Positions 1-51,671 are shown, counted from the first letter of the stretch. The stretch: 64,000 bases of DNA from Octopus vulgaris (GCA_951406725.2 OX597834.1:4030001-4094000), one strand, 5' to 3'. The notes: generated from the sequence alone by a model not told the origin. Program-made: numbers and translations.

Positions 1-215
1 CCATACTCTTAACCCCAAGATTCTGAGTTCGATTCCAGGCAGTGACCTGAACAATAGCAACAACAACATCGAAAAATACCTTAGGAATGAGAATCCAGGT
101 TCGAAATTTCTGCAAGACACCTGATGAAGCCGAAACGTTGTGTTAACAACAAACAAGATGAGGAGAAATATCCGTCAATTGTAAATAATGTACATAATTC
201 CTCATCTCTTAAATA
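1..215 (+). mobile_element. tRNA-headed short repeat carrying a minimal hammerhead motif
   Basis: B-box-like GAGTTCGATTCC at 26-37. The body is homologous to 51462-51622. Confidence 0.7.
116..144 (+). ncRNA. Minimal type I hammerhead ribozyme relic (stem II collapsed)
   Basis: GACAC-CTGATGA-agcc-GAAAC-GTT-GTGTT. Both core boxes are intact and stem I pairs GACAC/GTGTT. Confidence 0.65.
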
Positions 216-1733
216 TAGAACTGAATGATGTTTACAAAAATGGACATAAAAAGAAGAAGGCAAAGTCAAGAGAAAGAAAGAAAGAAAAAAAAGAGAGGAG
301 GGTGTGTGTGTGTGTGTGAAAGAGAGAGAAATGCATGGAAAATGAAGAAATTTTAGATACTAATAGAATAAATACTATTCTGTTGACAAATAAAGCTAAA
401 CAGAAAAATACTTTTATCTTTTTCTGACTGTTCAAGGTATGAGTCATTAAAAGTAATCTCCCTCGGATATCGTCTCATTTCCATGTATATTAGTACCACC
501 ATCACTATATCGTTATCCGTAAGGTAATATATGTAAATGAAGACAACGGTCAACAGAAGATTGCTTTATACAAACAACAACAAACATACACACACATGTG
601 CACAAATAAAAAACAAAAAGATAACATAATACAAATAAAAATAACAGTAAATAAAAAAAACGAAAGCATGAAATAGAAAATGTTTCTTTTTTGAAAAGAA
701 AGGCAAAATAATGGCAAAAAAAAAAAAGTTTTAAAAAATAAATTAAAAAATATACAACAAAAGAAACAAAATAAATAAATAAATGTACAAACAAGCCAAA
801 AGTGCAAGAATCATTTAAAGGAAGCTGAAGCAAAGCGAAGCAATAGAAAAAAACAAGCTACAGGCAGGAAGAAGATAAAAAAACGTAAATAAGGGCAATA
901 ATTGCAACAAGATTATTATCATTATTAAATAATAATAATAACAATAATACTAATAATAATACTAATTATGATATTCAGCCACATGCAGTTCTCTTTTCTA
1001 CGAGGGGAGCGGGGCGTATTTTGGGCCCATTTGATCACAACATCACAAGCGGCACAAATACACAATGCTACAGACGGTAACACAACAGGCCCAGATGTCT
1101 TGGAGACACATCAGCAATGCAATACAAACTGAAGATTGTCCGGCTGGCGGTGGAACGCCTGTCCTATGTCTTGGACAACTGAAATTCTCCGGTTTCGACA
1201 TTTCCGAATATGCGCGCGCGTGTGTGTGTGTGTCAGCACACATGCACTCATACATATAAATGATTTCGGCATGTTGGGTTGGTAGTTAATAATTAGTAAT
1301 GTTTAGTAGTGTTTAGTAAGGAAAGCAATAAGAAATCATGCAGTTTCAAATTTAGGGGATTTTCTTAGGGTACAAAAAAATTAAAGGAAAAAAAAAAAAA
1401 AGAAGAAGAACCTAAATATAAAAGGAAATTATAAAAAAATACCATACCTATACCAAGCACATCTACGGTGGAGTGCGTGTGTGCATATGTATATCTGTGT
1501 GTGTATATATATACATATATATACACACACACACATGCATACACGCACACACATTCACACACGCACACATATATTATTTATTCATTTATATATATATATA
1601 TATATATGTATGGGTGTGTGAGTGTGAGGGAACATGCATGTAACCTTGATAAATATGTATCCATCAAAGAAGAAATAAAGAAACACAACCACTAAAACAA
1701 AACAAGCAGAGAAAGAACATTGAAAATAGAAAC

Positions 1734-1769
1734 CCGGAGAGAATTTCGGCTCTAGATCCCTTCCAGGAA
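1734..1769 (-). CDS. Candidate 36-nt symmetric microexon (VPGRDLEPKFSP)
   Basis: Strong acceptor (ttgctgttgttgttgctatttctgcAG), phase 1-1 and frame-compatible with the 7487 donor. The donor G|GTTTCT is weak. Confidence 0.35.
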
Positions 1770-2326
1770 CTGCAGAAATAGCAACAACAACAGCAACAGC
1801 AAAAATCAATGCCATTCTGAGTGATGACTTCTAAGAAGACATCAGGCCAGGTGTTGCGAAGAAAAAGAAAATAGGTGCAACCGCTTCCAAACAGAATTGG
1901 TAAGTAAGAATTTAGAAGGACGAAACATAACGATGGGGCTCGACTAAGCTGGTCCCAGTGCTTTTGATAATAACGATCGATGGTACATCACAAAACAGTA
2001 ACTATACAGTATGGGAAAAGAAGTGATTCCTCCCCTGCTTAATTTTTCTCTCAACATATTTTGTCATTCATTGCTCATCAAATGCAGGATAATCCCATTT
2101 CTTTTTAACCTTGCATGTCCAATGCATTTAAGGTTTATATCTTGCTGTCCTGTAGAACTACTTTTCACTCAGACAGAGAGAAATCTTTTGTTACCATCAG
2201 AGGTAATGGCTCTCTCAACATTCTGCAGCTTGTTTGTAGTTTAGCATCTGTACTTTCAAAACAACATCATCTGCTGCTAATTCAGTTACCGAAGAAATAG
2301 AGGGTATTTACTTCTTTTAGGCAGAT

Positions 2327-2697
2327 GGTATTTCGTCTGCCGTTACGTTCTGAGTTCAAATTCCGCCGAGGTCGACTTTACCTTTCATCCTTTCGGGGTC
2401 GATAAATTAAGTACCATTTATGCACTGGGGTCGATGTAATCAACTTAATCTGTTTGTCTGTCCTTGTTTGTTCCCTCTGTGTTTAGCCCCTTGTGGGTAG
2501 TAAAGAAATACGTATTTCGTCTGCCGTTACATTCTGAGTTTAAATTCTGCCGAGGTCAACTTTGCCTTTCATCCTTTCAGGGTCGATAAATTAAGTACCA
2601 CTTACGCACTGGGGTCGATATAATCAACTTAATCTGTTTGTCTGTCCTTGTTTGTCCCCTCTGTGTTTGGCCCCTTGTGGGTAGTAAAGAAATAGGT
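2327..2697 (+). mobile_element. Tandem pair of 5'-truncated tRNA-derived SINEs with a Nin/Deu-like central domain
   Basis: Two head-to-tail copies of gttctgagttcaaattccgccgaggtcgactttgcctttcatcctttcggggtcgataaattaagtacc...gtaaagaaata. Confidence 0.85.
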
Positions 2698-6966: not shown

Positions 6967-7486
6967 CCACACACACACACACATGTATATACATATCCAC
7001 ACACACACACACACACACACACATTTTAAGAGAGCTTTTGGTAGCAAAATGAAATGATGGCAGTCAGGAACTACAGTTCCTAAATATGATTGAAAAGAAA
7101 TAGAAAAAAATTTGAAACACAATTTCAGAAAAATTGGGAAAATTATCCCAGCGAGACTTTGAGAATGAAGATTTAGTTCTTGTTTAGTCCCCGACTCAAG
7201 CTTCATTGAGTAGGACCTATAATAAAAGGTGTTCCAGCCATGATTTTTTCCTCCTCTTCCCCCACCTTCTTAAGAAAATCAAGAATTCCCAAATTACGAA
7301 TTACAGAGAAAATAACTGCCACAATAACATCAAAGGCAAGTAACAGAGATTAAAACCAATGAGAAGCAACACAGAAGAAAAGAAAAGATAAGACGAGAAC
7401 CCCTACATCAGCTGGAAACCGGATACATATTTACCACAGAAACATCTTCATGTTAATTGGTTAGAAAATTAGAAGGGTTAACCTAC

Positions 7487-7772
7487 CAGATGATTTAACA
7501 TCAACACAACAGTGCCGTCTGACCATACTGCAGGCAGAGACTGCACGACGCTGTGGTCGGACATAGGTATCCGAGTCAGAATCATTGGCTGAGCATCGCA
7601 GAAGCGTACTATGAGAAGATGATCTCTTGCGGTCTAAAGGCAAACAGATTTCACGTGGTGTACGGCTACCAAAGCCATAAATGCGCCCACCTCTATGTCG
7701 GCCTGATTGTTTCCACTGTTCGTAACGGGCAACTCGTTCTTGGGCTCTTTGCAAAATGGCTTCTCTTCGGAC
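7487..7772 (-). CDS. MAP7: Ensconsin/MAP7 exon following the coiled coil, 286 nt, phase 0-1
   Basis: Splice sites ttttggtAG|GTC CGA...TCA TCT G|GTAGGT. The peptide VRREAILQRAQERVARYEQWK...IYGFGSRTPREI...RRAVSACS continues the coiled coil in frame and carries the ensconsin-like FGSxTPR motif. Confidence 0.88.
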
Positions 7773-7955
7773 CTACCAAAATAAAACAAAAAAAAATTTT
7801 AGAGAGAAATGTCAATACATACATACATATATATATATATAATGCAAAAAAGAAAATGGAGAAACAAATTTAGTTTGTTCATCAACTTTCGGATATTAGA
7901 ATGTTGGATTATTTATTCATTTAACAAAAATAAGAACCTCAATAGCATACATATA

Positions 7956-8186
7956 TATTTCTTTACTGCCCAGAAGGGGCTAAACATAGAGGGGACAAAC
8001 AAGGACAGACAAAGGAATTAAGTCGATTACATCGATCCCAGTGCGAAACTGGTACTTTATTTATCGACCCCGAAAGGATGAAAGGCAAAGTCGACCTCGG
8101 TGGAATTTGAACTCGGAACGTAACGACAGACGAAATACGGCTACGCATTTCACCCGGCGTGCTAACGTTTCTGCCAGCTCGCCGCC
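7956..8186 (-). mobile_element. Full-length Nin/Deu-like SINE
   Basis: Reverse complement of the 2327 family, including the head ggcggcgagctggcagaaacgttagc. Other minus copies lie at about 12100-12170, 26230-26400, 44238-44468, 48078-48240 and 48508-48760. Confidence 0.85.
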
Positions 8187-8290
8187 TTATTAGCATACAT
8201 ATCATCATCATCATCGTTTAACGTCCGTTCTCCATGCTAGCATGGGTTGGACGATATATATCTTATAATTCAATACATATAAGAATACAA

Positions 8291-8335: not shown

Positions 8336-10269
8336 TAAAAACCCCAAATACATAATTTTGCAGCTATTTGTGAAACATTCTGCTAGTGCTGTATACTTTG
8401 AATTCTAAGAACTATTATCCAAAGAGCAATACAGAGGGTGGCAAAACATTAAAACAATTTCATTAAAGTTTCAACAACCCCATGAGATTGTCTGTGTATG
8501 AGTGTATGAGTGTACACATGCACAATCCTGATATGGAAAGTATCTGTGTGTATGTATATATGTATATGGGTGGGGCGGAGGTGCACAATGAGAGAGACTT
8601 ACTATATTACAGGAGATTATTGTTTGCAAACAATAAAAAGTTTGCAATGGTACAACAATACACTATAATACAAACACTGGATTATAGACCTGTTGTAATT
8701 TGGTCATCCATTGTCTGATATGATATTTTGGAATAAAATTCTTTCTTCAGATATTCTTAGATGGAGTTGCTGCTATAATCAGTTTTCCAATGGCTTTTCT
8801 TTATTATATTTTTTGTGGAAGCATCTCAGCAGTGGTATCACGAAGCTCCTTCCGAAATCCTCATGAAAAGTGCGTGAGGTTGGTCATGTCTCAATCTCGT
8901 GTGTGCTGGTACATCCGTAGCGCTGCTTCTATACATGCAGCTTCCTTTTTTCCCTCCTTTTTTCTCTCTTTTCTTCAGGCTTTGTGGGTGAGTTTTAACT
9001 TTCCTATTATAGCTAAACATTTGCAATCTTACATTGGGCAGATAAGTGTAACAAGCTTTTACTGTGCCGGAGCACTGCCTTAAAGGGTTTTAGTCAAAGA
9101 AATTGGCCCCAGGACTTATTCTCTGTAGGCCTAGTATTTATTCTAATCAGTCTCCTTTGCCGGACTGTTAAGTTACGGGGATGTAAATACACCAACATCA
9201 GTCATCAAGCGATTGGGGGGGGCAAAGACACACACACGACAGGCTTCTTTCAGTTTCTGTCAACCAAATCCATTTACAAGGCTTTGGTCAGCCCAAAGCT
9301 ATAGTAGAAGACACTTGTCCAAGGTGCTACACGTGGGACTGAACCCAGAACCATATGGTTAGTAAGCAAGCTTTTTACCACACAGCCGTACCTGTATGTC
9401 TATAAAAAAATTAGGGTTGGTATGTTCATACCACAAAACATTTTTATGTCTGCACCTCCTTGGTCTAGTGGCTAGATGATGTTTTTGTTTCTGCAAATCT
9501 AGATCTCACAAGTGCCATATTAAAAGTGGTTTTATATGGGAATAAGCTGGAGATAAACCTACTTATTTTGCTAATAATTAAGAGTGTTACTGAAGATTTT
9601 ATTTCTTCAGATGATTTCTTTGTTGGGTTTGTCAGAAGTAGAGTGGCCTGTGGTGAGATACATGCCTTAGTAGTAAATTATTTTTAGATTAGACTTAATG
9701 GTAATTTTTCAGTTTTGTTGTTTGACTATTGTGATGAGTTTATTCTATCTTCATGCTCTTATTCTGTGTCCACTTCTGTTAAGAACAACTCCAAGTTTAC
9801 CATCTCTGACCAATTCTATATCAGCTTCCTCTTTTGTTCAGCCAATTTAGAATGTTTAAGTCTACAAATTGAGCAGTCTCAGCCCAGTTAAAGCACCTCA
9901 TTGCTACATTAAACTATTCTTAATCTTATTTTTACCCAGTAAAATTGTCATGAAATAACAGCAATTTTCTGGCATTCATCATTATATTAATGCCAGAATC
10001 AGTAATTGTAGCACGTAGCTTGCTGAACTTCATGGCTTGGGGGTAGAAGGGGTTTGTTGCGGATGTTTTTTGAGACTGAGGGGTAGAATTCTACAATGTC
10101 TAATTATTTAAACATGTAGTTGGGTTTAAGGTTTGTATGCTTGAATCGTTCAATACTGCACCAAGTCCTCCATATCCAATGTTTAAGATTAGCAGCTCTT
10201 CTAATTTGAAGAAAAACAAACGTTGATATTTTCTTTATGCTGCCTATTTCACTTTTGGTAAGGCTAATA

Positions 10270-11029: not shown

Positions 11030-12075
11030 GCTTTCTTTTCAGATACACGATGCTGCAGTCACCCCCATCCCAAGAGTCTGACGGGCCCACACCTTCCACG
11101 CCCTCAGAGTTGGCACATTGAAAGATAGGTCTGGTGAGATTGTTGAGATGCTTGAATGGAAATATGTAGATGTGTGCTGCATCCAAGAAGTAAGGTGGAG
11201 AGGAAGTTCTGTTAGGTTCCTCACAGGCAAAAAACATAGGTACAAGATATTTTAGATAGGGAACACTGATGGAGTCAGAGGCGTGGGTATACTTCTTGCA
11301 GAGAAATGGGTTGATAAGGTAATCGAGGTAGTCAGAGACTGATAGAATACTTATGCTTAGATTAGTGCTGCAATATGGATTAGCAGTCATTATCTCAGCT
11401 TATGCTCCTGGTGGACACACTAGTCAGATTGACTACATTCTCACTGGGAAACGGGAAAGATGGCTACTTATAAATGCCAAAACTTTCCCAGGTGAAGAAA
11501 GCACCCCACAACATAGGTTAGTAGTTAGTGACTTCATGATCAGGGCTAAATGGCTGCCCAGAAGACAACCAGCATGGAAAAGAAGGGTCTGGAAGCTTAA
11601 GGATCCTCTGAATGGACAGAGATTTAGAGAATAATACTTGATGCTTTTGACGAAAACGAGGAGAATACAGCATCACATAATGTGGAAGACAACTGGAGGT
11701 TTCTACAGGACAACCTGTTGAGGGCGGCTGACCAGACCTGTGGCTGGTGCAAGGTCCCCTCTCAACCCAAGGTAATGTGGTGGTGGAACAATGTAGTTGA
11801 CAGGGCCATTAGGGAAAAGAAACAGGCATGGAAGGATTGGAAGAGTGGTGGTAGTAGGGAACTGTATCATATCACCAGAAGGGAAGCTAGGAGACGGTTT
11901 AGTTAGCCAGAGGAGCAGCAGAAAAGAAAAAATTTGCCAATGTTCTGTGCCATGAGGACCAAAGACTTGAAGTGTTTCATGTTGCAAGACAGAGAATCAT
12001 AATGTCATAGGAGAGAAATGTGTCCACACGGACGATGGCTCACCTGCATTTAATGAGGCTGCAAAGAGAGAGATT
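11030..12075 (+). mobile_element. RTE-clade LINE fragment (AP endonuclease and linker), decayed
   Basis: Reads GTLKDRSGEIVEML...VCCIQEVRWRG, GVGILL, ISAYAP, SQIDYIL, QHRLVVSDF and WWWNNVV, with stops and deletions. Confidence 0.9.
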
Positions 12076-13313: not shown

Positions 13314-14029
13314 GCCAGGCTTCTTTCAGTTTCTGTCTACCAAATCCACTCACAAGGCTTTGGTTGGCCCAAGGCTTATAGTATAAAACACTTGCCCAAG
13401 GTACCACACAGTGGGACTGAACCTGAAACTATGTGGTTGGGAAGCAAGCTTCTTTACCACACAGCCATGCCTACGCCTACAGCCAAGCCTGCACCAACAA
13501 CCAAGCCCTGAGCATATTGAAAAACAAAGTATTGCTTTGTAGAAGTACAAAATTTGCTGGGATCGGCAATTTCATGGCTGTATTACATTCTTAAAGCTCT
13601 TTTAATTCCTAGGACTCAATTCTACTTGCAGCACTCACTGTATGTTGTTACAAAGCAAAAACAGGTCAATGTTTTTGACCTTTGCAGGTCATCCCACATT
13701 ATTAAGATTGGTGTTCAGTGTTTTGCGTTTAAAGGACAATGTTTGCAGAAAGAGCACCGGAAGGGGAAAAATTCCAGAATGTTTCAGTGCTGAGGAATAT
13801 GAAGTTAGTTAGTGCAGGGTCCAGAAAGTGAAACACAGTGAGAATTACAAAAGGAGAGACAAATATCTAAATATCTGTTTTGGGAGATGCTACATTGTTT
13901 TTTACCAGCTGTTAAATATGTAATTATTATTTCCAAACACATAGTGTTCAGTATTAAGATCTTTATGATTCACTGGCAAAAATGATGGGAAAAAAGTCAA
14001 CCAAAAGTTCTCTATTCTATTATTTCCCC

Positions 14030-14326: not shown

Positions 14327-14436
14327 CTTATTCTATTATACAGTGATATACTGTTAATGGTCAAGGGTATAAAAAAAAAACCCTAAGAGATTTGAGAGAA
14401 GTAAAAACAAAAAACACAGAGGAACTCAATACTTAC

Positions 14437-14678
14437 TCTCTGGTCTTCTTCCTGTTTGCGACGGCGTTCTTCCACGGCAGCTCTTCTCTCTTCCTCTCTG
14501 CGACGTAGCTCATCAATTTTCCGACGCCTTAATTCTTGCTGTCTTTCCCGATGCTCTTGTGCCAACCGCTGTTGTTCTTTCAACTCTTCTATTTTCTTTT
14601 TCCGTTCATCAGCTAACTTCTCTCGTGCAACTCTGACCCGTTCTTCTCTTTCTCTCTCCTTTTCCTTCCTTACAGTAC
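14437..14678 (-). CDS. MAP7: Ensconsin/MAP7 N-terminal coiled-coil (microtubule-binding) exon, 242 nt, phase 1-0
   Basis: Splice sites tttttgcAG|GT ACT...CAG AGA|GTAAGT. The peptide TVRKEKEREREERVRVAREKLADERKKKIEELKEQ...RRREEERRAAVEERRRKQEEDQR matches the MAP7/ensconsin pattern (ERRRAAVEEKRR in vertebrate MAP7; REERLKYAR...ERQRKIEEL in fly Ens, recalled from memory). Confidence 0.9.
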
Positions 14679-21190: not shown

Positions 21191-21686
21191 TAGATAGATA
21201 GATAGATACATACATACATACATATATACATACACACATACTCACATATAGTAAAAAAAGTGCAGAGGAGGATGACAAATGAATACAGAAAAATCCCATA
21301 CAACAGGTGGAATTGTTCAACCATCATTTTCCGCTCGGAACGTTAAATCCTCCTCCTTCTTTCTTTCTTTTCCTGAGTGTCCAATAATACTATATTTGTT
21401 CCACATCCTCGTGTTGTTGTGTTTTCTCTATGTTCATGTTTGGTTTAACTATATATACATATATATATATATATAAATATACGTGTGTGTGTGTGTATAA
21501 TGAACTTCATTAAACAATAGATCGACAACTAAGTAGATTCCTTTATAGTGATCAAATGTTTGTGCACCCCTAACTTCACGACCCGAACTTGCACTTTTAG
21601 TATTCGGCAATCACATCATTCACTTTCAACTCTGCGCTATTCTCGAATTATCACATTTTAAATATGCTCCCATAATTATGTGTGTG

Positions 21687-23839: not shown

Positions 23840-24190
23840 GTAATTATTAGTATAATTATGCCTAAAATCTCCAAGAAGTTAAGGAGATAGACAAAGAACA
23901 TGCTGTTTTTACTCCAGCATGTTCTTTGTATAATTATACTAATGTGTCCATCTGTTCTAATTTAATTAAATTCTATGTCTTTGTGCAGCTGAAGATTGGT
24001 CTGCATCTTAAACATGGTGTAATGACTGCGTTGTTCAATTAAATGGAGTTGCATGAAACAATCGTACTGCATTACCTCTGGATATCCTTGTTGCTTATTT
24101 TGATTTTAATCACCTTATTTTGAAATTGTATGGATAATACCGTACTAAATTCTGGTGTCTCAAGCTTAAGCACCATATTCATCTGAATCT
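23840..24190 (+). mobile_element. (TA)n-embedded fold-back element with hammerhead motif
   Basis: Nested inverted repeats 23846-59/23930-43 and 23891-905/23915-29, then a hammerhead-like motif, a tail and (TA)n. Confidence 0.6.
23984..24071 (+). ncRNA. Type I hammerhead-like motif with a long degenerate stem II
   Basis: TGCAG-CTGAAGA-(59 nt)-GAAAC-aatc-GTA-CTGCA. Stem I is perfect and both core boxes are canonical. Confidence 0.6.
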
Positions 24191-26956: not shown

Positions 26957-26957
26957 C

Positions 26958-27000
<43 letters not shown>

Positions 27001-27033
27001 TATACATATATATATATATATACATATATATAC

Positions 27034-27083
<50 letters not shown>

Positions 27084-28454: not shown

Positions 28455-28487
<33 letters not shown>

Positions 28488-28490
28488 CAC
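26580..28490. repeat. About 1.9 kb compound (TA/CA) microsatellite-minisatellite array
   Basis: Higher-order units such as acatatatatacatatata and tattacatatatatac, with a SINE tail fragment at about 27925-27990. Confidence 0.95.
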
Positions 28491-29183: not shown

Positions 29184-30246
29184 GAGGAAGATTTATGTAA
29201 GTTACAGTGATCAATGACTAATTCACTAAAGCCCATACATGAAGGAACACAGACATGTAAAATAGAATTTGTAAGTTGGGAATGATTGATACGTAATTTG
29301 TATTCCCAGGTACTCACGGTTCTAAGCAATTAAGCATTCAGACAAAAGATACCCGCTTAACAGAATATTAAAGAGATAATAATATCAAACAGGTAAAATG
29401 ACAAGGCAAAAAAAAAAGAATATAAAAAATAAAAAAGCTCCCATTTATTTAAAAATTATAGCGATTTACTTTAAATCAGATGGAAACAAAAGTTGATTGT
29501 GGAGGACATTCGGTAGTTACACAGTCAAAGAGGAAGTGATGGGGAGGTGGGGAACCATAGCAACAGCTATAAAGCTTCACTTTGCTGCATTGGCATTCTG
29601 TTATCATTACCGGCATTCCATCACCATTTTGCCAATATCACTACCAAATCATCATCCTCGTCATCATTATCACTCGGAATAACAACATTATCGACATTAT
29701 TATTATTAGCATCTATATAATTGCAACAGATTGCAAATGAACGAGGATAACCGTGTGTGGTACACCTCTGACAATCAAATGATTTATTGTTTACTGCATT
29801 ATTCAGACAAGAAATCTCATTAAGTAAAATAGAGACCCTTCAACGCGAAAAACAGACGCGAGAAGGAAAAATTCTTGTGATAGAGAGAGATTAGTTATTT
29901 AATAGTGAAGTAGATGGATGACAGAGTATAGAAGCAGCTTATGAGCAATCACACAGAATCAGCATTTCTGTTACACAACACATGCATCCACATAAATTAA
30001 TGCAAGTTGAATAGTTTTTCTAAATACAAGTCGAAAGCAGAAGCAATTTTTCTTGTGAAATGAGATAATAATTCTGTGTGCGTATATATGTATGTGTGTG
30101 TGTGTATGGATATATGAATGCACACACATAGATATGCATTAAGGTTCTCACACCTATATAAGCTATAAAATTGAGAGAGAGAGAAACAAGACAACAAATG
30201 CAAAACAAAGTAAAAAAAAAATTGGAATAGTAGTTTAAAAACCTAC

Positions 30247-30316
30247 TTCTCATAGCAGATTTCCAAGACGTCAAGAAGGAGAAACATTTTAGATAACCGC
30301 TTTTCTTAGGTTCCAT
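30247..30316 (-). CDS. MAP7: Putative alternative first coding exon of the MAP7-like gene (MEPKKSGYLKCFSFLTSWKSAMR)
   Basis: ATG at 30316 (acactATGG), 23 codons plus A, then a GTAGGT donor. Phase 1 matches the 14678 exon. There is an in-frame upstream TAG, a polypyrimidine/CAG acceptor at 30351-30352, and a motif cluster about 130-160 bp upstream. Confidence 0.55.
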
Positions 30317-36859: not shown

Positions 36860-37675
36860 AGGGTGCAATGAATAAATTGTTTCCATTTTATATTTTTAAT
36901 TTCACGCATGCACACTGTTTTTGATTTTGTTGACTACTTAGCAGTAGGGCATCGTCTGTTAGAAAAACAGTACCATGATGCAATTCACTCTGCCAGAAAT
37001 TTGGAAACGACACGCTGTACTGCTTGACATTCATGCTGAAAGCTCCAATACAAACATTTCAGAGAGTTTGGGTGTCAATCTGAGGAGAGTGCAGAGGATT
37101 CACAAAGATTTGGATGAGTCTAATGGTGATTGCGAAGGTATGGCAGCTTGGAAAACTCACTTTTATTCATATGATAAAAAAAGAACTCCTGAATTTGTTG
37201 GTGAGATCCAGGCCATGATTGACAATGATCCCTCCAAATCAGTCAGGTTCATCACCTGGGACATGGGAGTATCTGAGTTTCTTATCAAGCAGTCAGAGCA
37301 TGAAGACATTCGGTATGCCTCATACAAAGTGAGAAAGGGCCAATTTTTATCCCAAGCCATCAAGGACAAGGGGTAAGACTGTGCTACGAAGCTTTTGAAC
37401 AAACCGAAGCACCCCTTCCAACTAAACATGCTTTGGTTTTTCACTGACAAGAAAAATTTCTGCCAGGATCAGATGATGAACACACAGAACAACCATGTCT
37501 CCAAAACATGTACCAAGAGTGATAAAAATCAAACAGCCAGTCAACAACATGGATGTTGGAGTGATCACTAATGATGGTGATGTTATGCCTCCATTCATCT
37601 TCCCACATGGCCTCAAACGCAACATGGAAGCCTACATCAAGTGCCTCAAGAAGGAAGTGCTGCCCTGTCAGAGGT
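36859..37675 (+). mobile_element. Tc1/mariner transposon 5' part (decayed transposase)
   Basis: TA|cagggtgcaatgaataaattg TIR. HTH region EIWKRHAVLL...KKRTPEF...DNDPSKSVR, then WFFTDKKNF and GDVMPPFIFPHGL. Confidence 0.88.
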
Positions 37676-38255
37676 CCTACATCATTCACAGACTTTTGAA
37701 GACACAATGGGGAAGTCTGCATGACCTATAGAGAAGCTTGCGCCAAACATGGACCACTGGAGGACGATGCTCACTGGGACCAGACCCTGGAGGAAGCAGC
37801 ACTAAGTCAACTGCGCCAGGTATTTTCTATCATGTGGATGACATGTGGCTTGCATGACTTCACAAGCTTTGGGCAATCCACAAAAGCAGCATGGCAGAGG
37901 ACATCTAGAAGGGATTCAAAGTCAAACCTCACTGGAAATTGCCACATTGAGTAACGCCATTCATAATGAGGCATTACTTGACCTGGACACCCGAGTGCAA
38001 GCGATTGGAGGTCAAGGCAATTCCACATTTGGTTATTACATAACTGACTTCACAATTTGGGTAATCATAACTTATCGGGAATTCCTAAAAACAAAATCCT
38101 GTGTAAGACAGTTCAGTATTCTCTGTAAATGCACAAAAACCATTTTAAGGGCTACATACTTTGTACTGTTGTTATTGGATTAGTGAAACAATTATGAGAA
38201 CCAAACCAAAAGGATAAACCCCGCTTTTCCAGGAATTACAGGGTATGTCAGCTAG
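37676..38255 (+). mobile_element. Helitron RepHel fragment with CTAG 3' end
   Basis: TYREACAKHGPLEDDAHWDQTLEEAALSQLRQVF, ending ...cagggtatgtcagCTAG|T. Confidence 0.8.
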
Positions 38256-39807: not shown

Positions 39808-39869
<62 letters not shown>

Positions 39870-40053
39870 GTCCAGACCACCAGCCCTCATTCACACGCAC
39901 ATACATATTCTCTTATACACACACGCACCTTTGTGTTGAGGGCTCCTTCGTGTTGGAGGTCATCTTGACCTTGTTATCTCAGACGAGTCAGACGCCATGA
40001 TAGATCGTTAGCCACAACACACATTTTTTTTCTCTCCTTGTTTTTTCTGTGTA

Positions 40054-40091
40054 TCTTTCTGTAGAAGAGCGTAGGCTCGAAACGTAAAAGA
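40054..40091 (+). ncRNA. Minimal type I hammerhead ribozyme motif (core variant CTGTAGA)
   Basis: TCTTT-CTGTAGA-a-GAGC-gtag-GCTC-GAAAC-GTA-AAAGA, with perfect stems I and II. Confidence 0.72.
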
Positions 40092-40293
40092 CTTTTTCTA
40101 TTCCTGAGCGTTATACTAACACATCTGTTTGTTTTGTACACCACCTGTCTTCGGCTTTTGTTTATTTTCGTAAACTTTCCCTTTTTATACATATATATAT
40201 AAAGTTAATCCAAACAAGAAAGCACAAAAAAACACAACAACGCGAGGACGTGGAACAAATATAGTATTATTGGACGCTCAGGAAAGAAGGAGG

Positions 40294-40328
40294 GTTTAAC
40301 GTTTCGAGCGGAGCTCTTCGTCGGAAAC
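40294..40328 (-). ncRNA. Minimal type I hammerhead ribozyme motif (core variant CCGACGA)
   Basis: Minus strand GTTT-CCGACGA-a-GAGC-tcc-GCTC-GAAAC-GTT-AAAC, with perfect stems I and II. Confidence 0.72.
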
Positions 40329-40829
40329 ATAGGAGAAGGAAAGGTCCAGAGAAGGGAAAACAGAGGGAAAAAAAAATCGCCAACGGTACACACGAGGTCA
40401 CATTTTGAAACACACACACGTGCATACAAATACATACATGTCTGTGGAAATGTGTTATCCTTCACCTAGTAAAAGGAAGAAGGGTTAGTTTCAGAAAGGG
40501 CAACCATGGAAAAATGAAAGTAAAAAGGAAAAGAAAGAACACACACACACATCATTTCTAAATGCAGTGTGAAAATAAGTTTAATATTTAATTCCATATA
40601 TATTTTAAGAGTGAGTGTGTGTGAAATTGATATAATTTACAATAAAATTTTTGTTTCATTTTCAGTAAAACACCCAATTACTTCAGAGCATCTCGGACAG
40701 TCACTCCCTCCCAATCCGTTTGGTGTTTTAATTTTCCTCATTTCAAACACAAAAGACACGGAACAACCTAAAGAGAGACAGCCTTCAATACTTCTTTCCA
40801 TATATTCCTTGGTCTCTTCCTTCCACTTT

Positions 40830-42340
40830 AAGTGATCAGCACTTCTTTATCTAACAGACCTTGTCCATATGCATCATTTGACCAAATCAGCACAGTCTTA
40901 CCTCTTGTATTTCTGCATCCATTTCTTCTTATGCCTAACTTTTCTCTCATTACACAAGTGCTCTGTTGCACATGTACATTCACACTGCACATCCAACAAA
41001 AAATACCAGCTTCATTCCTCTCCAGTTTTTGCATGTCCTCTGCATTCAGGGCCCATGTCTCACCACCATGTAACATTGCAGTTCATACACAGGCATCATA
41101 CAATCTTCCTTTTACTCAGATATAGAGAGACATTCGGTTGTCAAGAGAGGTTAAAGCTCTGAACTTTCTCCATCCTATTCTTATAGCAACTACATTTTTG
41201 GTACTTCCTCCTCCACTACTAATTAGGTTACCTAGGTAGCAGAAATTACCTATCTACTAAGACCTTGGTCTTTGCTAAGTTAACCTTAAGACCCTTTGAT
41301 TCCAGGTTTTGCCTCTACACCTGGGACTTCTTTTCTGGTTCTGTTCCAGATTCTACTATGAGGGCATATAGTAATTCCAGTCTTAAATTCCTTTGTTGTG
41401 GCCTGAAGGACTATGATGAATAGGAGGGGGCTGAGGAGCAAGCCTTGGTGAACACCTACCTACCTGTATACTAAATTTGTCACTGTACCCATGGTTAACT
41501 CTTACCTTACTAACAGCACCCCTGTACATGACCTGTACAGCTTTCACAAGCCACTCATCTACCCCTGACTTCCTCAGAGACCACCATATCACACAGTGGG
41601 TACTCTGTCAAAGGCTTTCTCCAAGTCAACAAATGTTCAGTACAATTTATTCTTAGCTACATACTTCTCTTGCAGTGACCAAACTATGAAAACAGCATCA
41701 GTAGTGTTTCTCCCCAAGACAAAGCCAAAATGCATTTCATCTCGTCTAATTCTGTTCCTAAATAACTGGGTTATAACTTTCTCCATAACCTTCATTAACT
41801 GGTCCAGCAATTTGATGCCTCTATAATTCTGTCCAAGGCCTCTCCCTTACTCTCATAGCAGCTGACTGTGATGCTGTTACACCAGTCATTAGGGATAACA
41901 CTTTCCTAAATAACCTAATTAACTATACAGTTGACTAGACCAAACCCAACTCTACCAGATATTTTAAGTGTCTCAACAGGGATTCCTGATGGATCAGGAA
42001 CTTTCCCTGTCTTCATATCGGATACCGCTTACGCCCAACTTCTCTCTCAAGATGCTTACACTCTGTCAAACATGCACACTGACATTGCACATCCAGCGAA
42101 GCATACTGGCTTCATTTCTTTCAAGCCTATGCATGTCCTCGGCTGTCACAGCCCATGTTTCACTGCCATGTAGCAGAGCTGTTCACACACAGGCATCAAA
42201 CAATATGCCTTTCAGTCAGAGAGAGAGGCCCTTTACTGCCAGCAGAGGGAAGAGCTCTCTGAACTTTGCCCAGCCTATTCTTATTCTCACAGCTATGCTC
42301 CCAGAGCAACCACCTCAGCTGCTAACTTGCTCACCTAGAT
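40830..42340 (-). mobile_element. RTE LINE reverse transcriptase fragments (two pieces)
   Basis: Remnants FVDLEKAFDRVP, IWWSLRKSGVDEWLV, FGFVLGRNTTDAVFIV and MLHGGETW. The C-terminal part recurs at about 42040-42340. Confidence 0.9.
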
Positions 42341-42359: not shown

Positions 42360-42753
42360 ATTTTACTTGTTTCAGTCATTTGACTGCGGCCATGCTGGAG
42401 CACCGCCTTTAGTCGAGCAAATCGACCCCGGGAGTTATTCTTTGTAAGCCCAGTACTTATTCTATCGGTCTCTTTTGCCGAACCGCTAAGTGACGGGGAC
42501 GTAAACACACCAGCATCGGTTGTCAAGCAATGCTAGGGGGACAAACACAGACACACAAACATATACACAAACACTTTTATATATATACATATATACGACA
42601 GGCTTCTTTCAGTTTCCGTCAACCAAATCCACTCAGAAGGCATTGGTCGGCCCGGGGCTATAGCAGAAGACACTTGCCCAAGATGCCACGCAGTGGGACT
42701 GATCCCGGAACCATGTGGTTGGTTAGCAAGCTACTTACCACACAGCCACTCCT
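42360..42753 (-). mobile_element. CORE-type SINE inserted at the end of an RTE fragment
   Basis: Reverse complement of the 24651 family. Other minus copies lie at about 9060-9390, 13075-13470, 18285-18630, 20118-20507, 38435-39000, 39400-39775, 43535-43948 and 51935-52305. Confidence 0.85.
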
Positions 42754-42949
42754 GCTGTGTTATGCTTGTAAATATATATATTTACAAACATAACAGTATA
42801 CACATAATTATGTGCACAAATTATAATCCATGTATTACGATGTGTGGGGCATGGTTGAGAAAGACACCAGCTACTCTGCCTGCAACACCAAGGCTGAGCA
42901 GCCAGCCAAGATCAAGGAGGTGTTCAAAGAACTTGTCAGGGACAGTGAG

Positions 42950-43215
42950 AGATGCATGCTGCAGGATTACCCCAGACAACAGGACATGTGCAACCTGTGG
43001 AAAGGTGTGTCGTTCAGTTGGAGGATTAAAAACACATGTCAAAAGACTCCATTCTGTGGCACTGGTTCCTTCTGCCAGCCAGCACAATTCTGCATTATGT
43101 AACAAAATGTGCAAATCTTTGGCAGGACTCAACAGTCATATAAGGACTTCACACTGCATTACCAATGACTCATTTCAATGATTCATTCTAGTAATGGCTT
43201 TGCTTGGATACAAGA
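42950..43215 (+). mobile_element. RTE/BovB-type LINE C-terminal C2H2-like zinc-finger remnant
   Basis: TCATCGKVCRSVGGLKTHVKRLH and LCNKMCKSLAGLNSHIRTSH, adjoining a mariner fragment (42830-42960). Confidence 0.6.
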
Positions 43216-43440: not shown

Positions 43441-43733
43441 CTGTATCTGTATATATAAATGCATGTATTTTTATATATAATGTTGCATGGGTCAATTTAA
43501 ATTCTAAGTTACATACTTTTTCTTTCTTTCTTTTTCTTTTTACTTGTTTCAGTCATTTGACTGCGGCCATGCTGGAGCACCGCCTTTAGTCGAGCAAATC
43601 GACCCCGGAACTTATTCTTTGTAAGCCCAGTACTTATTCTATCGGTCTCTTTTGCCGAACCGCTAAGTGACAGGGACGTAAACACACCAGCATCAGTTGT
43701 CAAGCAATGCTAGGGGGACAAACAAACACACAA

Positions 43734-43782
<49 letters not shown>

Positions 43783-46384
43783 TACGACAGGCTTCTTTCA
43801 GTTTCCGTCTACCAAATCCACTCACAAGGCATTGGTCGGCCCGAGGCTATAGTAGAAGACACTTGCCCAAGATGCCACGCAGTGGGACTGAACCCGGAAC
43901 CATGTGGTTGGTTAGCAAGCTACTTACCATACAGCCACTCCTGCGCCTATACGTTTACTTATGTCTGCAAATAAACAGCAGTGTACGAGCAATCATGAAA
44001 TATTTCTGTATGAATGTGTATTCAAGTAGTATAGTTTGCATGAGGGATTTTCTGATACAGACGTGTTTTTAATATATTTTTTTAGACCTAAAAATCCACA
44101 ATGTGAATCATAAGAAATAATACAATTTGATGGTCTGTACTTTTACTCTGTATTTCGATATTTCATGGTTAGGTAGTTATGAGCCTCTGTTTGAAGTGTG
44201 AGTACACTTCTACCGTGAAATACACAGTACTTTTACCTATTTCTTTACTGCCCACAAGGGGCTAAACACAGAGGGGACAAACAAGAACAGACAAATGGAT
44301 CAAGTCGATTACATCGACGCCAGTGCGCAACTGGTACTTAATTTATCGACCCCGAAAGGATGAATGGCAAAGTCGACCTCGGTGGAATTTGAACTCAGAA
44401 TGTAACGGAAAACGGAATACGGCTACGCATTTCGCCCAGTGTGCTAATGATTCTGCCGGCTCGCTGCCTTATACAGTACTTTTACCATTAAATACCAGGT
44501 AAAATGCAAACCATGAACTATTATTTTTATAACTCGCATTGTTTTGGCTTAAAAAATTAAGAACTTACACACACACACACACACACACACACACTTAAAT
44601 ATATATAATATGCTGAAATGTGTGAGCGTGTAAGAGTATTAATCAACTGCAAAGTTAAGTAAGTGATTCAAGGTCTCTGAGATTCCCATGCATTGCACTT
44701 TCCAACTAAATTATAAATCAAATTTTCTTTATATGCACAAAAAATAAAAGATGATTGTTAAAAGGTTTATGTGTGTGTGTTTCAGCCATGTAGCTGGTGT
44801 CATGCAGGAGCACCACAGCACAAATAACCTCTGAAGCTGGTGAGATTGATTCTATTAACATCTTGCTTGTAAGTCAATGGTTTACAAGATATGTTCCGAA
44901 AAGGGAGAACTGGGCACAGCATCCTTGAGAGAGGGATGCAAGATAAGCAACGAGAGTAGATGCGACAACTGAACCAAGAGTCGTTATGGGGAAGTGGCAT
45001 GAGGTCAAGCCATCAGAGGACTCCACTAATTATTGGTGTTGAAAATTTAGATATTATTTTGTATAGATAGCTTGAATTACTACCGTGAAATATTGAACCA
45101 TGATTAGAGATGATGGAAATTCTTAATTTTAACATATACAAGCAGACATACATATATACAGACTGGTATACATATAAACCATTACACACACACACACACA
45201 CATGCTTATATTTAAATAAATAAGAATACTCACACATAAATATTCTCATCACAGTGTTTTAAAACAAGTAAAAACATTAATTAGTTCCTCACAATTTCAT
45301 CAAAAAGAGCCGTTAATGTTACGAGACCGCATAAAGTCAAATGTTCAACACAGATTTTTACCTCCGACTGACACAACTTAATTTTTTGTTTTGTTTTTAA
45401 TGTTCTTATTATTATCTTAGTTTACCTTCTTTTTTTTTTTTTGCCTTTAGGTAAACATTAAAACAGGTATAGTCAGAAACTAAGCTTCTACATCATCAAC
45501 AATAGATTTTCTTTTCTCATAACGAGTAGAATGAGAAGCTATAATTATCATTGGTTGGTATTTATGTCATTGTTAATACGGATCAGCAATCAGAGAAAAT
45601 CAAAATCTGAAATTAAGCCTACCTAAGTGATGCTCACCTCTAACTCTCAAAACCAAAGTTAAAGATTAAAAATCTTTACATAAAACTAACCAACGAACTG
45701 TTTCTTTTTACAATTATTATATTTATTTTTTCCGCGTTTTGGGAAGATATTTTGTAATCACTTATTTTCAGAATTCTAATTCATTTTAACTCTTCCTTTT
45801 GCATTTCAGCATCAGTTCAACCAATTCTGCTTCTCCTCAGAAGAAATCCATTCTGTAAATACACTGTAAGCAAGGTTACAAGGAGCCAAGCCTATGATGG
45901 AGGTTTGATTCTTCCTTTTACTTCATATTACTAAACTGAAGTCATTATCTATTACCTCAACTACCAATATTCAAGAGAATGGCACCAGTTACACATCTCC
46001 ATGCTCTGTATTCAAAATATTTCAATATATCAAGATTTTCTTTTACTTCAAAATTCAAATCTTATTGGAGTTGACTGCTATTTAACACACTTGAGCCTAC
46101 ATAATAAATCAATATAATCAACTACACAACTCATCAGGAGAAAAGAAAAAAACATATACTCTGATTAAAGTGACATTATCTAGACAATTGACTGAAAAAT
46201 GATGAGCTTATGCAGGCTGGATCCGAACCCACATATCAACACTAACATGGCTCCATGTACATCCGATTGAGCCAGAATGCTCACTCATAAATTTCAGTCA
46301 AATTTTATGCCTAGATATTTAACTGTCTTGTACTACATTTAATATTTGTAGACAAAGCCAAAGGCTCAATAAGTTATGCTCTTT

Positions 46385-47101
46385 CTCCATAACATCACTA
46401 GTGATCACTCCAAACACCATGATGCTGGCTGGATGTTTGATTTGTTATCACTCTCAGTACATGTTTTAGGGACACAGCAAGCCAACGGTTGTCCTGGCAG
46501 AAATTTTTCTCGTCTGAGAAAAACCAAAGCATGTTCGGTTGGAAGGGGTGCCTCAGTTTGTTCAAAAGCTCCATAGCACAGTCTTTCCTTTTGTCCTTGA
46601 TGGCTTGGGATAAAAAACTGGCCCTTTCTCATCTTGTATGAGGAATATTGAATGCCTTCATGCACTACCTGCTTAATAAGAAACTCAGACACTCCCATAT
46701 CCTTGGTGATGGACCTGACTGATTTGGAGGGATCATTGTCAATCATTGCCTGGATATCACCAACAAATTCAGGAGTTCTTTTCTTATCAGAGCAATCAGA
46801 GTGAGTTTTCCAAGCTGCCATATCTTCGCAATCACCATTAGACTCATCCAAATCTTTCCAAATCCTCTGCACTGTCTTCAAACAGACACCCAAACACTCT
46901 AAAATCTTCATATATGAACTTCTGGCACGAATGCCAAGTGATACAGCATGAGGTTTCCAAATTTCTGGCAGACTGAATTGTGTCATGGTACTGTTTTTCC
47001 CACAGATGGTGCCCAACTGACCCTACTATACTGTGTAGTCAACAATATCAAAAACAATGCACGAAATTTAAAATATAAAATGACGACAATTTACCCATCG
47101 C

Positions 47102-47107
<6 letters not shown>
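46385..47107 (-). mobile_element. Second copy of the same Tc1/mariner family, 5' part
   Basis: ORF 46405-47016 is homologous to 36975-37376, and the TIR abuts (TA)n. Confidence 0.88.
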
Positions 47108-48060: not shown

Positions 48061-48808
48061 AGTTGTTCTAATAATATGTATTTCTTTATTGCCCACAAGG
48101 GGCTAAACATAGAGGGGACAAACAAGGACAGACAAACGGATTAAGTCAATTACATCGACCCCAGGGCGTAACTGGTACTTAATTTATCGACCCCGTAAGG
48201 ATGAAAGGCAAAGTCGACCTCGGCGGAATTTGAACTCACAAGGTGAGAGCAAATATGTCCATAGTTCATACCTATTTATGTTACCGTTAATCCCCACCCT
48301 CATCACAAGGCTCCCTTGGACCATTTCTTTTTACAATCCATTCCTCATTTTTACTATCATTCCTTCCCACTGACTGCTCTTTTCCATTCCTCCTCCAAAA
48401 GATACATCTTAAGATTGCCAATACTTTATATTTAACAACCTCTTTTAACTGTTATAATTCTCATTATCCTGTCATATCTGCTGTTGACACCACCCCAGCA
48501 TTTATACCTATTTCTTTATTACCCACAAGGGGCTAAACATAGAGTAGACAAACAAGGACAGACATAGGTATTAAGTCGATTACATCGACCACAGTGCGTA
48601 ACAGGTACTTAACTTATCAACCCCCGAAAGGATGAAAGGTAAAGTCGACCTCAGCGGAATTTGAACTCACAACGTAACGACAGACGAATTACGCCCCCCC
48701 CCCCCCTTGTGCTAACGCATTCCCCCCTCCCTGTGCTAACGTTTCTGCCAGCTCACCTCCCAAGCACTATAGTCATGTCTAAGCACCATCCATCTCTGTC
48801 ACTGTACT

Positions 48809-49740: not shown

Positions 49741-50118
49741 GTTTAATATTATTAGTGAATGGAATAAATGGAGTTGAACGAAGATTGTACAGAATACCTG
49801 AATGTAATAAAAGATATTCTGTACAATCTTCGTTCAACTCCATTTATTCCATTCACTAATAATATTAAACTTCAATTATCCGCTCCAACGCACGGTTGCA
49901 ACACCAAATGGTCTTATCTCCAACTGTGCTGTTTTCCGCTGTGATTTTTGCTACCCAGGTATCGGTTAAACCTTTGAATAATCTGTTACAAGAAAATTCA
50001 TCTTTCTATTTCAACAAATATATATATATATATATATAAAGCAATATTATCTATTTTTAATAAAAGAAATAAATTGAAGAGCCTATTATGTATCCAAGGT
50101 CAAATTATTCGCACATGC

Positions 50119-50124
<6 letters not shown>
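49524..50124. repeat. Nested inverted-repeat complex in (TA)n
   Basis: Outer arms 49524-49613 / 50036-50124. Inner perfect 60-bp arms 49737-49796 / 49815-49874. (ATC)n/(GAT)n hairpin at 49653-49703. Confidence 0.85.
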
Positions 50125-50156
<32 letters not shown>

Positions 50157-50904
50157 TCACTTCTTTAAAAAGGTTTCTCCAATGTCAACTTCCGGTGTTG
50201 AATTAGCAACAGCAAAATTTTCCGTTTTTATTTGTGAAATCTCTCACTGACTATTTTAATGTTTTCATTTCAAGTTTTAATTCCCTATTTGCCAAGTTCA
50301 CAAATTTCGCTTGAATCTGCACACTTCGCTAATTTCTGTAGTTTTTTATTTATTTATTTTTTGCATGCCATGTTCATGTTCAGCTCTATATATTTGCAGT
50401 CAGTCACACACGAGCACATGTGTTTTTGTATGTATGTTTGTATACATTTATGTATGTGTGTGTGTGAGAGAGAAAGAGAGTGAAGAGGTGTGTTGTCATG
50501 TATACATACATACGTAAATTCATATGCAAACATCTATGTATGTTTGTGTGTGCATGTGTGTGTGAAACAGAGAGTGATGTCTAAGTGGCACTCTCTCTTT
50601 CTCTCTCTCTCTCTCACAAAAATGCATGCATATTTATGTGTGTATGTATACATAACACACTCATCCACTCACTCTCTCTCTCTCTCACACACGTCCATTT
50701 CATCTGATGTTTGATACTGTCTGTGTCTGTGTGCGCCCATGCGTGCAGCGTTCCACATTCGACATTTATTTCAAGCACTCTTGTGAAGATATTCACGTAA
50801 CTCATTTTTTTCATTTAATCCCTATTTTACTTTTCAAAAAGTTTCCAAAGATGTAGATGATCAGTATTCTACAGGGAAGCAAAGACGAGTACAGGTAGAT
50901 GGAT

Positions 50905-51671
50905 TCAATGTTGGATTCTGCAACTCTGTTAACTCTTTTAAGTATGCTTGCAAATATATAAGCAAAGGTTTAGATGCTGCAACATACAACCTTATGCAGT
51001 ATGACAGAGGAAGATACCAATGAGTACCAATGAGGCCCTTTTGGCGCATCTTCGATTTTCCCATTCCTGAGAGGCACCCAGCCATCATTCATCTGGGTGT
51101 CCATCTAAAGAATGGCCAAAGGGTTATCTTCACAAAACAAACAGCCTTGCAACGAGCACCTTCACCAAAAGAAACTACCCTTACTGTCATTTTTTAAGTT
51201 GTGTCAAGAAGATGAAGATGCAAGAAAACTCCTTTACCCACAATTACCCAAGTATTACACCTGGAGAAACAATAAATGGTACAAGAGAAAAGGTGGAGCT
51301 GATGCTCTTGCAAGAGCCAAGCAGAATGCTACTACTTACGGCTCCTTTTGCATGAAGTATGTGGTCCCAAACCATTCCAAGATTCAAGAAGGGTAAATGG
51401 TCATGCGTGTGAAAGTTATAGGAAGCATGCCAGAAATTCTCCTTCAATGCTAAATTCTCCTTCAATTCCAGGCAGTGATAACATCAAAAAATACCTTAGG
51501 AATGAGAACCCAGGTTCGAATTTTCCCCAAGACACCTGATGAAGACTGGAGAGTATAACAGCCAAAACGTTGTGTTAACAACAAACAAGGTGAGGACAAA
51601 TATCCGTCAAATGTAAATAATTTATGTAAGGAACAGTTTCAATCCCGGGCAATGTTGGGTGCCTCTGCTAG
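50905..51671 (+). mobile_element. Helitron RepHel fragment with 3' hairpin and CTAG, containing a nested hammerhead repeat
   Basis: FNVGFCNSV...CKYISKG, WRIFDFPI...HLGVHLKNGQRV and FFKLCQEDEDARKLLYPQLPKYYTW. Terminus cccgggcaatgttggg...CTAG|T at 51644-51672. Confidence 0.85.
51531..51576 (+). ncRNA. Minimal type I hammerhead ribozyme relic (GAAA>AAAA)
   Basis: GACAC-CTGATGA-a-GACTG-gagagtataa-CAGCC-AAAAC-GTT-GTGTT. Stem II is present with one mismatch. Same family as 116-144. Confidence 0.7.

Follow-up and report, generated by a model that had tools for sequence, protein, structure and literature searches.

Minimal hammerhead ribozyme motifs of several retroelement families in the introns of the Octopus vulgaris ensconsin gene

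Hammerhead motifs in the introns of ensconsin

We analysed a stretch of 64,000 nucleotides from Octopus vulgaris (GCA_951406725.2 OX597834.1:4030001-4094000; hereafter the window) that has a G+C content of 37%, is rich in microsatellites, and contains seven copies of hammerhead ribozyme motifs within the gene for ensconsin (MAP7). Each of these copies, designated A1, A2, B, C, D, D2 and E (Table 1), is probably a solitary insertion from one of several Octopus retroelement families that are abundant and bear the minimal type I hammerhead known from Penelope-like elements (PLEs), mostly about 100 nucleotides before their 3' ends. Mapping of proteins to the window, with 32 of the 100 ensconsin proteins returned used as queries, places exons of Octopus ensconsin on the minus strand. 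The exon encoding the coiled-coil region matches the ensconsins (PF05672) of O. vulgaris, O. sinensis and O. bimaculoides at 96-100%. The window does not include residues 1-104 or the bulk of the C-terminal portion, and further exons lie past both of its ends. Because exons are thus placed both within and beyond the window, all of the motifs are intronic. The five motifs listed in a preliminary description of this sequence were all found again, flanked by ensconsin exons and therefore inside the introns of one gene, as that description had proposed. Five of the seven copies are antisense to ensconsin, and the two sense copies (D and E) both have altered cores; seven copies are too small a set to test selection against sense-strand ribozymes.

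The type I layout CUGANGA...GAAA...UH with a short helix I is shared by A1, A2, B, C, D and E. The core is exact only in A1 and B, with one mismatch each in A2, C, D and E. Helix I consists of four to five base pairs, and the fold is minimal rather than canonical. Helix III is absent or reduced to a small palindrome, which is ACGU in A1, A2, C, D and D2 and AUAU in E; in B it reads ACAAUCGU, one mismatch short of a palindrome. An extra base after A9 together with the G10.1-C11.1 pair is present in A2, C and D, and at this place E has A-U and B has U-G...C-A-U. The motifs match the published consensus of minimal hammerheads in their U-rich 5' flank, extra base after A9, G10.1-C11.1 pair (A, C and D), palindromic positions 15.2-16.2 and short helix I. 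The predicted cut sites lie after position 139 in A1, after 40086 in C and after 40298 in D.

A strict descriptor (no more than one mismatch in the core, four or more base pairs in stem I, and GAAA-CG-UH) returned four sites in the window (121, 40059, 40324 on the minus strand and 51536, which are A1, C, D and A2), compared with a mean of 0.0 and a maximum of 0 in 100 block-wise dinucleotide shuffles. Motif counts therefore exceed those of shuffled sequence (4 versus 0 in 100), a comparison that the preliminary description had proposed. A lenient descriptor that admits B gave seven sites against a shuffle mean of 0.32 and a maximum of 2; descriptors looser than the strict one add 23989 and 63711 (minus strand). 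Sites of the lenient scans at +80 and -45771 (two of the seven) and at -8750 were dismissed as AT-rich noise. Since the descriptors were composed after the motifs were known and were tuned to them, and the shuffles do not model repeats, the counts show only that the layout is not explained by base composition. Three small Rfam scans, around A1, C/D and A2, reported no hammerhead at expectation values (E) of 10 or below, and among 150 of the 216 matches from a scan of the whole window there were only microsatellite-driven ones and no hammerhead. Self-comparison of the window revealed no copy with a tandem neighbour on the same strand.

The motifs had at first been assigned to about four repeat families. 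Several distinct families are indeed present, but C and D are homologous sisters (alignment score 108, against 57 for the best of 200 shuffles). Homology of A, B and E to C and D or to one another is not significant; in the best case, E with B, 7 of 200 shuffles scored as well. The stem I sequences do pair within each motif, as had been noted, but differences between unrelated families are not phylogenetic covariation, and the sole double-sided change in stem I comes from the comparison of C with D.

Abundant sister families C and D

Elements C and D align over their whole length, 5' ends included. To follow them beyond the window, contigs of four public sequencing runs were aligned to positions 39870-40540 at 80% likeness: X2 and X1 (organism A; 49,971 and 833 contigs, respectively), X9 (organism C; 43,514) and X12 (organism D; 27,288). 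The pile-ups cover 39985-40190 and 40192-40421. In X2 and X9 the summed depth reaches millions across C and D and is about 100 past 40445. At its peak it is 6x10^4 to 2x10^5 times that of the unique flank, a ratio that is inflated by short overlapping contigs and is not a copy number. Extrapolation from the window, where 64 kilobases contain a single C copy and two D copies, gives about 44,000 copies of C (95% range 1,100-250,000) and about 88,000 of D (11,000-320,000) in a genome whose size of 2.83 Gb (gigabases) is derived from PMC13282606. A fair reading is that each family numbers in the thousands to tens of thousands.

Contig joints recur at the same places, leading back to 39984-39994 and out from 40394-40410, often via TA-rich linkers, and those unit ends therefore recur among copies. 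In several contigs the hammerhead region of C is connected to the repetitive stretch that separates element C from a (TA)n tract farther upstream; this stretch may represent the 5' portion of longer variants of C. Of the non-coding, ribozyme-bearing families envisaged in the preliminary description, at least two are thus very abundant.

Altered core positions in families C and D

Core lesions in the window had been taken as decay of individual copies. For C and D this is wrong, as the altered core is the usual state of the family. In each of the four runs, more than 90% of the contig depth of family C has U at core position 6. The canonical A at this position (40062) accounts for less than 10% of depth in every run, since the T>A tallies (4, 1, 3 and 3 per run) are fully explained by five other positions. 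At position 7 of C, A, C, U and G are all present (45-61% non-reference), and this is the only site with three alternatives among the 40 variants listed. Because position 7 is the sole free position of the core, its variability fixes the core register. Position H17 of C is A or U and never G, and loop II varies once. In family D, position 4 is C in 65-92% of depth and the canonical U in 8-35%. Both copies of family A have the canonical A6 and U4. Changes private to the copies of the window are detectable by the same method, as at 40016, 40120, 40154, 40344 and 40359, at each of which the window sequence disagrees with 97-100% of the depth.

In hammerhead C, three of six free positions vary, as against one of 30 constrained positions (P = 0.010) and 13 of 160 positions outside the motif (P = 0.012 versus the free positions). 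These proportions cover the 40 variants listed; five further variants, counted by hand, include a C>T and a G>A in X2, both of which may lie in the core. Among the variants listed, those of hammerhead D lie at position 4 and in stem I, and none at free sites. Continued selection on hammerhead C is thereby suggested, not shown. The changes A6U and U4C were presumably inherited from source elements, in which case the two families would have spread with a weakened or silent ribozyme, probably of weak activity.

Both changes fall on positions of the uridine turn at which variants are known, namely A6C in a hammerhead of phage Bcep176 and U4C in a viroid (PMC3088659, PMC7151607). These variants retain low activity, with A6C preferring Mn2+ (PMC3088659, PMC7151607). 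However, each of them is a rare, individual ribozyme that has a full tertiary fold, whereas family C combines A6U with a minimal fold throughout a high-copy family. We found no natural A6U hammerhead family in the literature searched, in which subscription work was thinly covered; an article by Lunse, Weinberg and Breaker (2017) on variants of PLE hammerheads may describe such cores. A scan of public contigs with the family C pattern CUGUNGA gave one match in metagenomes and none in prokaryote genomes or viral contigs, and its CUGANGA version gave none in viral contigs and genomes. The single match (L001, positions 2494-2466, minus strand) is a minimal hammerhead with a CUGUGGA core and a stem I of five base pairs, present as one copy in a fish-like metagenome contig. 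It may be a private mutation or belong to a second A6U family; one copy says nothing about a family.

The hammerheads of C and D could instead be dead, with a broken-core source having been amplified, PLE mobility having no need of the ribozyme, and the motif now free of constraint. We regard this as a serious possibility, though as somewhat less than an even one. Single changes in the CUGA turn lead to low activity in a mutational scan (PMC9901934), A6C strongly lowers rates in Mg2+ (PMC7151607), and Naiad PLEs thrive without canonical hammerheads (PMC8557442). Moreover, the constrained positions of hammerhead C show no significant excess of conservation over the remainder of the unit (1 of 30 variable against 13 of 160, P = 0.70). 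What speaks for a constrained motif is the location of the variation in hammerhead C, at N7, loop II and H17, all of them free positions.

A more ambitious reading is distinctly tentative, and we consider it improbable as a whole. It takes C and D as high-copy PLE satellites in which an altered uridine turn has become fixed while the fold and the catalytic guanines remain under selection. The motif might then act as a slowed or ion-dependent ribozyme that spares most of the template RNA, or as a non-cutting element for pairing or for recognition by reverse transcriptase. The same reading includes a short interspersed nuclear element (SINE) with a tRNA-Lys-like head that would have captured a minimal hammerhead, to which we return below.

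Candidate motifs B and E

Candidate B, the weakest of the set, has a stem I of five to six base pairs and a near-palindromic helix III (ACAATCGT). The 59 nucleotides between its boxes are closed by a stem of only two base pairs, as judged by eye, and the helix II region is poorly paired. A (TA)n tract follows 129 nucleotides downstream. A 45-nucleotide inverted repeat is located at 23888-23932, about 50 nucleotides upstream of B. Candidate E, which is additional to the motifs of the preliminary description, has the stem I UGAAC/GUUCA and a trinucleotide microsatellite 58 nucleotides downstream.

Both could be chance matches in AT-rich DNA. Each is single-copy in the window, B has the poorly paired region just described and E the A9>G change, and the lenient descriptor also returns noise. 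Nonetheless, B passes a descriptor allowing zero mismatches that gave no match in 100 shuffles, and E passes one with a shuffle mean of 0.08. Both end at a microsatellite. Furthermore, B shares its CUGANGAU...UGAAAC layout and its near-palindromic helix III with the hammerheads of Hydra-type PLEs (PMC8557442), and E has U-A at 15.2-16.2 as in published minimal hammerheads. We therefore rate chance as a rather unlikely source of the two motifs.

A tRNA-like head in family A

The two copies of family A are 81% identical over 145 columns (65-192 and 51480-51624, by self-comparison of the window). Bases 1-41, ahead of the hammerhead-bearing body of A1, are spaced like the segment of a transfer RNA (tRNA) that runs from anticodon loop to T arm. 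Eight weak matches (E 0.9-3) in two independent groups were found when bases 1-48 were compared with phage records; four lie on annotated tRNAs (three for lysine, one for pyrrolysine) and four at unannotated places in related Aeromonas phages. In an annotated phage tRNA-Lys-CTT the segment matching the head is positions 32-66. Neither Rfam nor ARAGORN called a tRNA in this head. The window opens within copy A1, and the part with the A box would lie to the left of position 1. Because A2 retains the 3' part of the tRNA-like head directly before the common body, head and hammerhead are joined in two of two copies.

By its sequence, family A thus looks like a hammerhead-bearing, SINE-like element with a tRNA-Lys-like head, although the likeness is weak. 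A1 lacks 17 nucleotides of helix II relative to A2, and A2 has lost G12, the general base of the hammerhead (PMC6155905); both copies are therefore predicted to be inactive. A 25-nucleotide stretch of family A had no match in public metagenome contigs. No tRNA-headed hammerhead SINE from a cephalopod was found in the literature searched, where subscription work was again sparsely represented. The closest counterparts are the Sm-alpha and Sj-alpha repeats of Schistosoma (PMC6765202), which are likewise short and non-coding and have a polymerase III-type head followed by a hammerhead. However, the hammerhead of Sm-alpha is canonical and fast and makes tertiary contacts, and the element is often tandem, whereas family A has a minimal motif and both of its copies are solitary and broken.

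Model for mobilization and comparison with known elements

Minimal hammerheads of PLEs were described in 2014 as massive and widespread in animals (Cervera and de la Pena, PMC4209133). The motifs of the window share with these the type I topology without helix III, the palindromic ACGU, the extra base after A9, the G10.1-C11.1 pair, the short helix I and the U-rich flank, as well as their occurrence as many families per genome and mostly as single dispersed motifs. Some of the published motifs form opposite-strand pairs 100-700 base pairs apart, and C and D are separated by about 240 base pairs. The core variant described in the portion of that article available to us is U3-A8 only, in contrast to U6 and mostly C4 in the window families. 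The published motifs are tied to PLEs, whereas no PLE open reading frame is linked to the copies of the window. No minimal hammerhead from a cephalopod was present in the supplement of that article as searched, which excludes one supplementary file.

A hammerhead in a PLE of O. bimaculoides has already been recorded (PMC8557442 File S2, Craig et al. 2021). The Octopus elements Hydra-1_Obim, Naiad_Obim and Naiad_Ovul have a preference for (TA)n like that of the window units and come from the same genus. The hammerhead of Hydra-1_Obim is located at 2403 of 2507 nucleotides, and those of the window families are likewise about 100 nucleotides from the 3' end. In contrast to the short, non-coding units described here, these PLEs are autonomous and 2.5-4 kilobases long, and the Hydra-1_Obim hammerhead differs in its canonical core, its helix III of four base pairs and its sequence. 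In O. vulgaris, 190 Penelope-like families make up 6.83% of the genome (PMC13282606 supplement), and the repeat library of this species also contains 1,279 unclassified SINE consensus sequences; the text and supplement of that work do not mention ribozymes. In view of these entries and of the O. bimaculoides hammerhead, the proposal in the preliminary description that the families are probably unannotated is doubtful. Abundant minimal hammerheads of animal PLEs, and a PLE hammerhead from Octopus, are already known, and what appears to be new here are the family-wide changes of the uridine turn and the tRNA-headed family.

In C, D, D2 and B a (TA)n tract begins 98-129 nucleotides after the predicted cut site, and in E a trinucleotide tract begins after 58. 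A microsatellite is thus found 58-129 nucleotides downstream of the cut site in five of seven copies, compared with a background of 9% at random positions (tract 40-130 nucleotides downstream); the excess has P of about 0.001 for four of six loci, with a distance range chosen after the fact. Other PLE traits are present in part: D2 is 5'-truncated, C and D are inverted neighbours, and tandem and head-to-head joints occur only in single contigs of low depth.

Under the reading that we prefer, C and D would be non-coding derivatives of PLEs of about 200 nucleotides, the size of a PLE pseudo-LTR (long terminal repeat). Their units would be transcribed by read-through or in tandem, and family A perhaps by RNA polymerase III. 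An autonomous PLE would supply its reverse transcriptase and GIY-YIG endonuclease in trans; a (TA)n tract would be nicked by them and reverse transcription primed there at the 3' end of the RNA, with frequent 5' truncation. D2 would then be an ordinary 5' truncation and the tail-to-tail pair of C and D two insertions into one (TA)n tract. A minimal hammerhead did not cleave as a monomer and did so little as a dimer (PMC4209133). A hammerhead without helix III needs two paired copies and would therefore cut only in tandem or paired transcripts, in which pairing of two copies through the palindromic ACGU may form the ribozyme. The copies in ensconsin introns would be passengers from which no cutting of the pre-mRNA is expected; as the sense copies D and E are solitary and core-altered, an effect on the host transcript is unlikely.

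Several results weigh against this interpretation. None of 67 reading-frame fragments upstream of any copy encodes a PLE reverse transcriptase or a GIY-YIG domain; two sub-threshold RVT_1 matches lie at least 880 nucleotides past the boundary of D. A search of the PLE sequences in the supplement of PMC8557442, where line breaks may hide matches, turned up none of the motifs of families A, C and D, and no autonomous partner was found. Whole units fold with no excess over shuffles (z = +1.0, -0.04 and -0.62), and in predicted folds of two copies the form of lowest energy is one other than the ACGU-paired dimer. Neither A1 nor A2 has a microsatellite end, and family A may therefore use another reverse transcriptase. 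Family-level contig data cover C and D only, with A, B and E known from their copies in the window. The conservation within C, described above, counts on the same side.

As an alternative to dedicated short units, C and D may be the heavily 5'-truncated 3' ends of autonomous PLEs, of which only the hammerhead-bearing end is left. Most minimal hammerheads are single motifs that are probably related to truncated PLEs (PMC4209133), D2 is truncated, and the repeat at 39866-39960 continues 5' of C. However, the 5' ends of C and D are homologous and lie at a similar distance from the hammerhead. In run X2 the depth on D climbs again near the 5' end and then drops several hundred-fold, the joints at 40394-40410 run to TA linkers or to another unit, and no remnant of an open reading frame was found upstream. 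These joints were taken from 24 of 1,579 loose contig ends, and an upstream continuation could be among the rest. On balance we judge such truncation to be unlikely.

The units could also be monomeric offspring of non-LTR retrozymes, with tandem arrays elsewhere giving rise to circular RNAs that are reverse transcribed and dispersed, but we find this very improbable: a unit of about 200 nucleotides is within the size range, dispersed monomers of retrozyme families have been described and a derivation of retrozymes from PLEs proposed (bioRxiv 10.64898/2026.07.22.740005), and a few contigs have head-to-tail joints (40093 or 40097 to 39992-39994; 40402 or 40409 to 40187), yet the window holds no tandem copy, those joints are single contigs with a depth of 44-84 against millions for the family, the unit ends about 100 nucleotides away from the cut site rather than at it, and canonical type I hammerheads are assigned to retrozymes and minimal ones to PLEs (PMC7229834). 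Although non-LTR retrozymes are likewise short, non-coding hammerhead repeats of animals and probably PLE-derived, they consist of tandem units, each with a type I hammerhead with canonical contacts between loops 1 and 2, and form circular RNA (PMC7229834; bioRxiv 10.64898/2026.07.22.740005). Dispersed monomers and a minimal fold do not support that label here. Thus, of the two origins first put forward, the motifs agree with PLE-type minimal type I hammerheads and not with retrozymes.

Other repeats in the window

Broken reading frames at 50787-51460 and 37700-37954 (both plus strand) were also found, the first ending directly at family A copy 2 and matching two short unnamed proteins at 69-80% identity. 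We take both to have Helitron Rep/helicase-like motifs, which Pfam and homologue searches did not confirm. A broken reverse-transcriptase remnant at 40828-41850 (minus strand), which contains two sub-threshold RVT_1 matches and is presumably RTE-like from its motifs, lies apart from element D, with a microsatellite and sequence of low depth in between; comparable fragments are located at 11332-11906, 23521-23790 and 32949-33410. Inverted copies of a broken transposase-like element, by our assumption Tc1/mariner-like, are located at 36861-37576 (plus strand) and 46393-47105 (minus strand) and are 85% identical over 407 nucleotides.

SINE-like families are abundant as well: several occur in the window at 7-13 copies apiece, and some have B-box motifs and tails of (TA)n or (CAT)n. 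An open frame at 42537-43181 (plus strand) that contains a pair of C2H2 zinc-finger-like motifs (Pfam, E of about 1e-4) is probably the end of a long interspersed nuclear element. The longest microsatellite of the window is a compound one of (TA)/(CA) type, about 2 kilobases in length, at 26490-28540.

Table 1. Positions of hammerhead motifs, their elements, ensconsin exons and SINE-like copies in the window
Feature	Position	Strand	Description
Hammerhead A1	116..144	+	Stem I GACAC 116-120 / GTGTT 140-144; core boxes intact; antisense to ensconsin
Hammerhead A2	51531..51576	+	G12>A at 51564 (AAAAC); helix II with one mismatch; antisense to ensconsin
Candidate B	23984..24071	+	Intact core boxes; CUGAAGAU...UGAAAC layout; single copy in the window; weakest candidate
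Hammerhead C	40054..40091	+	Core CUGUAGA; helix II GAGC/GCUC; GAAAC-GUA; extra A after A9; antisense to ensconsin
Hammerhead D	40294..40328	-	Core CCGACGA; sense to ensconsin pre-mRNA
Candidate E (sixth motif)	63676..63716	-	CUGAAGG (A9>G); helix II of four base pairs; GAAAU-AUU; sense to ensconsin
Element C	39990..40185	+	About 196 nucleotides, non-coding, very high copy, ends at (TA)n
Element D	40200..40410	-	About 210 nucleotides, homologous to C, very high copy
(TA)n tract	40186..40201		Elements C and D meet here tail to tail, their 3' ends sharing the tract
Family D copy 2 (D2)	21330..21462	+	5'-truncated in hammerhead loop II (GGAAC); ends at (TA)n
Repetitive stretch	39866..39960	+	Between an upstream (TA)n tract and element C
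Family A head	1..41	+	3' half of tRNA-Lys(CUU)-like sequence; B-box-like motif 25-36
Family A copy 1 body	42..225	+	Surrounds A1; 3' end approximate
Family A copy 2	51455..51624	+	5' end truncated in B-box region; 3' end also cut off
Ensconsin exon	57409..57558	-	P0003 residues 105-154, 100% identity
Ensconsin alternative first coding exon	30245..30316	-	P0001 residues 1-24, 100% identity
Ensconsin exon, coiled-coil region	about 14436..14678	-	Protein match
Ensconsin exon	7479..7772	-	P0002 residues 105-202, 98% identity
SINE-like copies, group 1	7944-8190, 2328-2702, 18652-18887, 26224-26399, 44225-44472, 48072-48760
SINE-like copies, group 2	9065-9393, 13316-13479, 42368-42755, 43542-43951, 51921-52305, 53082-53206

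Conclusions

The hammerhead of PLEs cuts poorly in vitro and is absent from some PLE clades (PMC4209133, PMC8557442). If the cores of C and D are simply dead, these families are ordinary PLE relics in a repeat-rich genome. Families C and D are missed by searches that require CUGANGA and by Rfam, and counts of cephalopod hammerheads would therefore be underestimates. Sister families that have reached at least thousands of copies with altered cores, and of which one comprises U4 as well as C4 subfamilies, represent a natural experiment on whether these elements need the hammerhead to cut.

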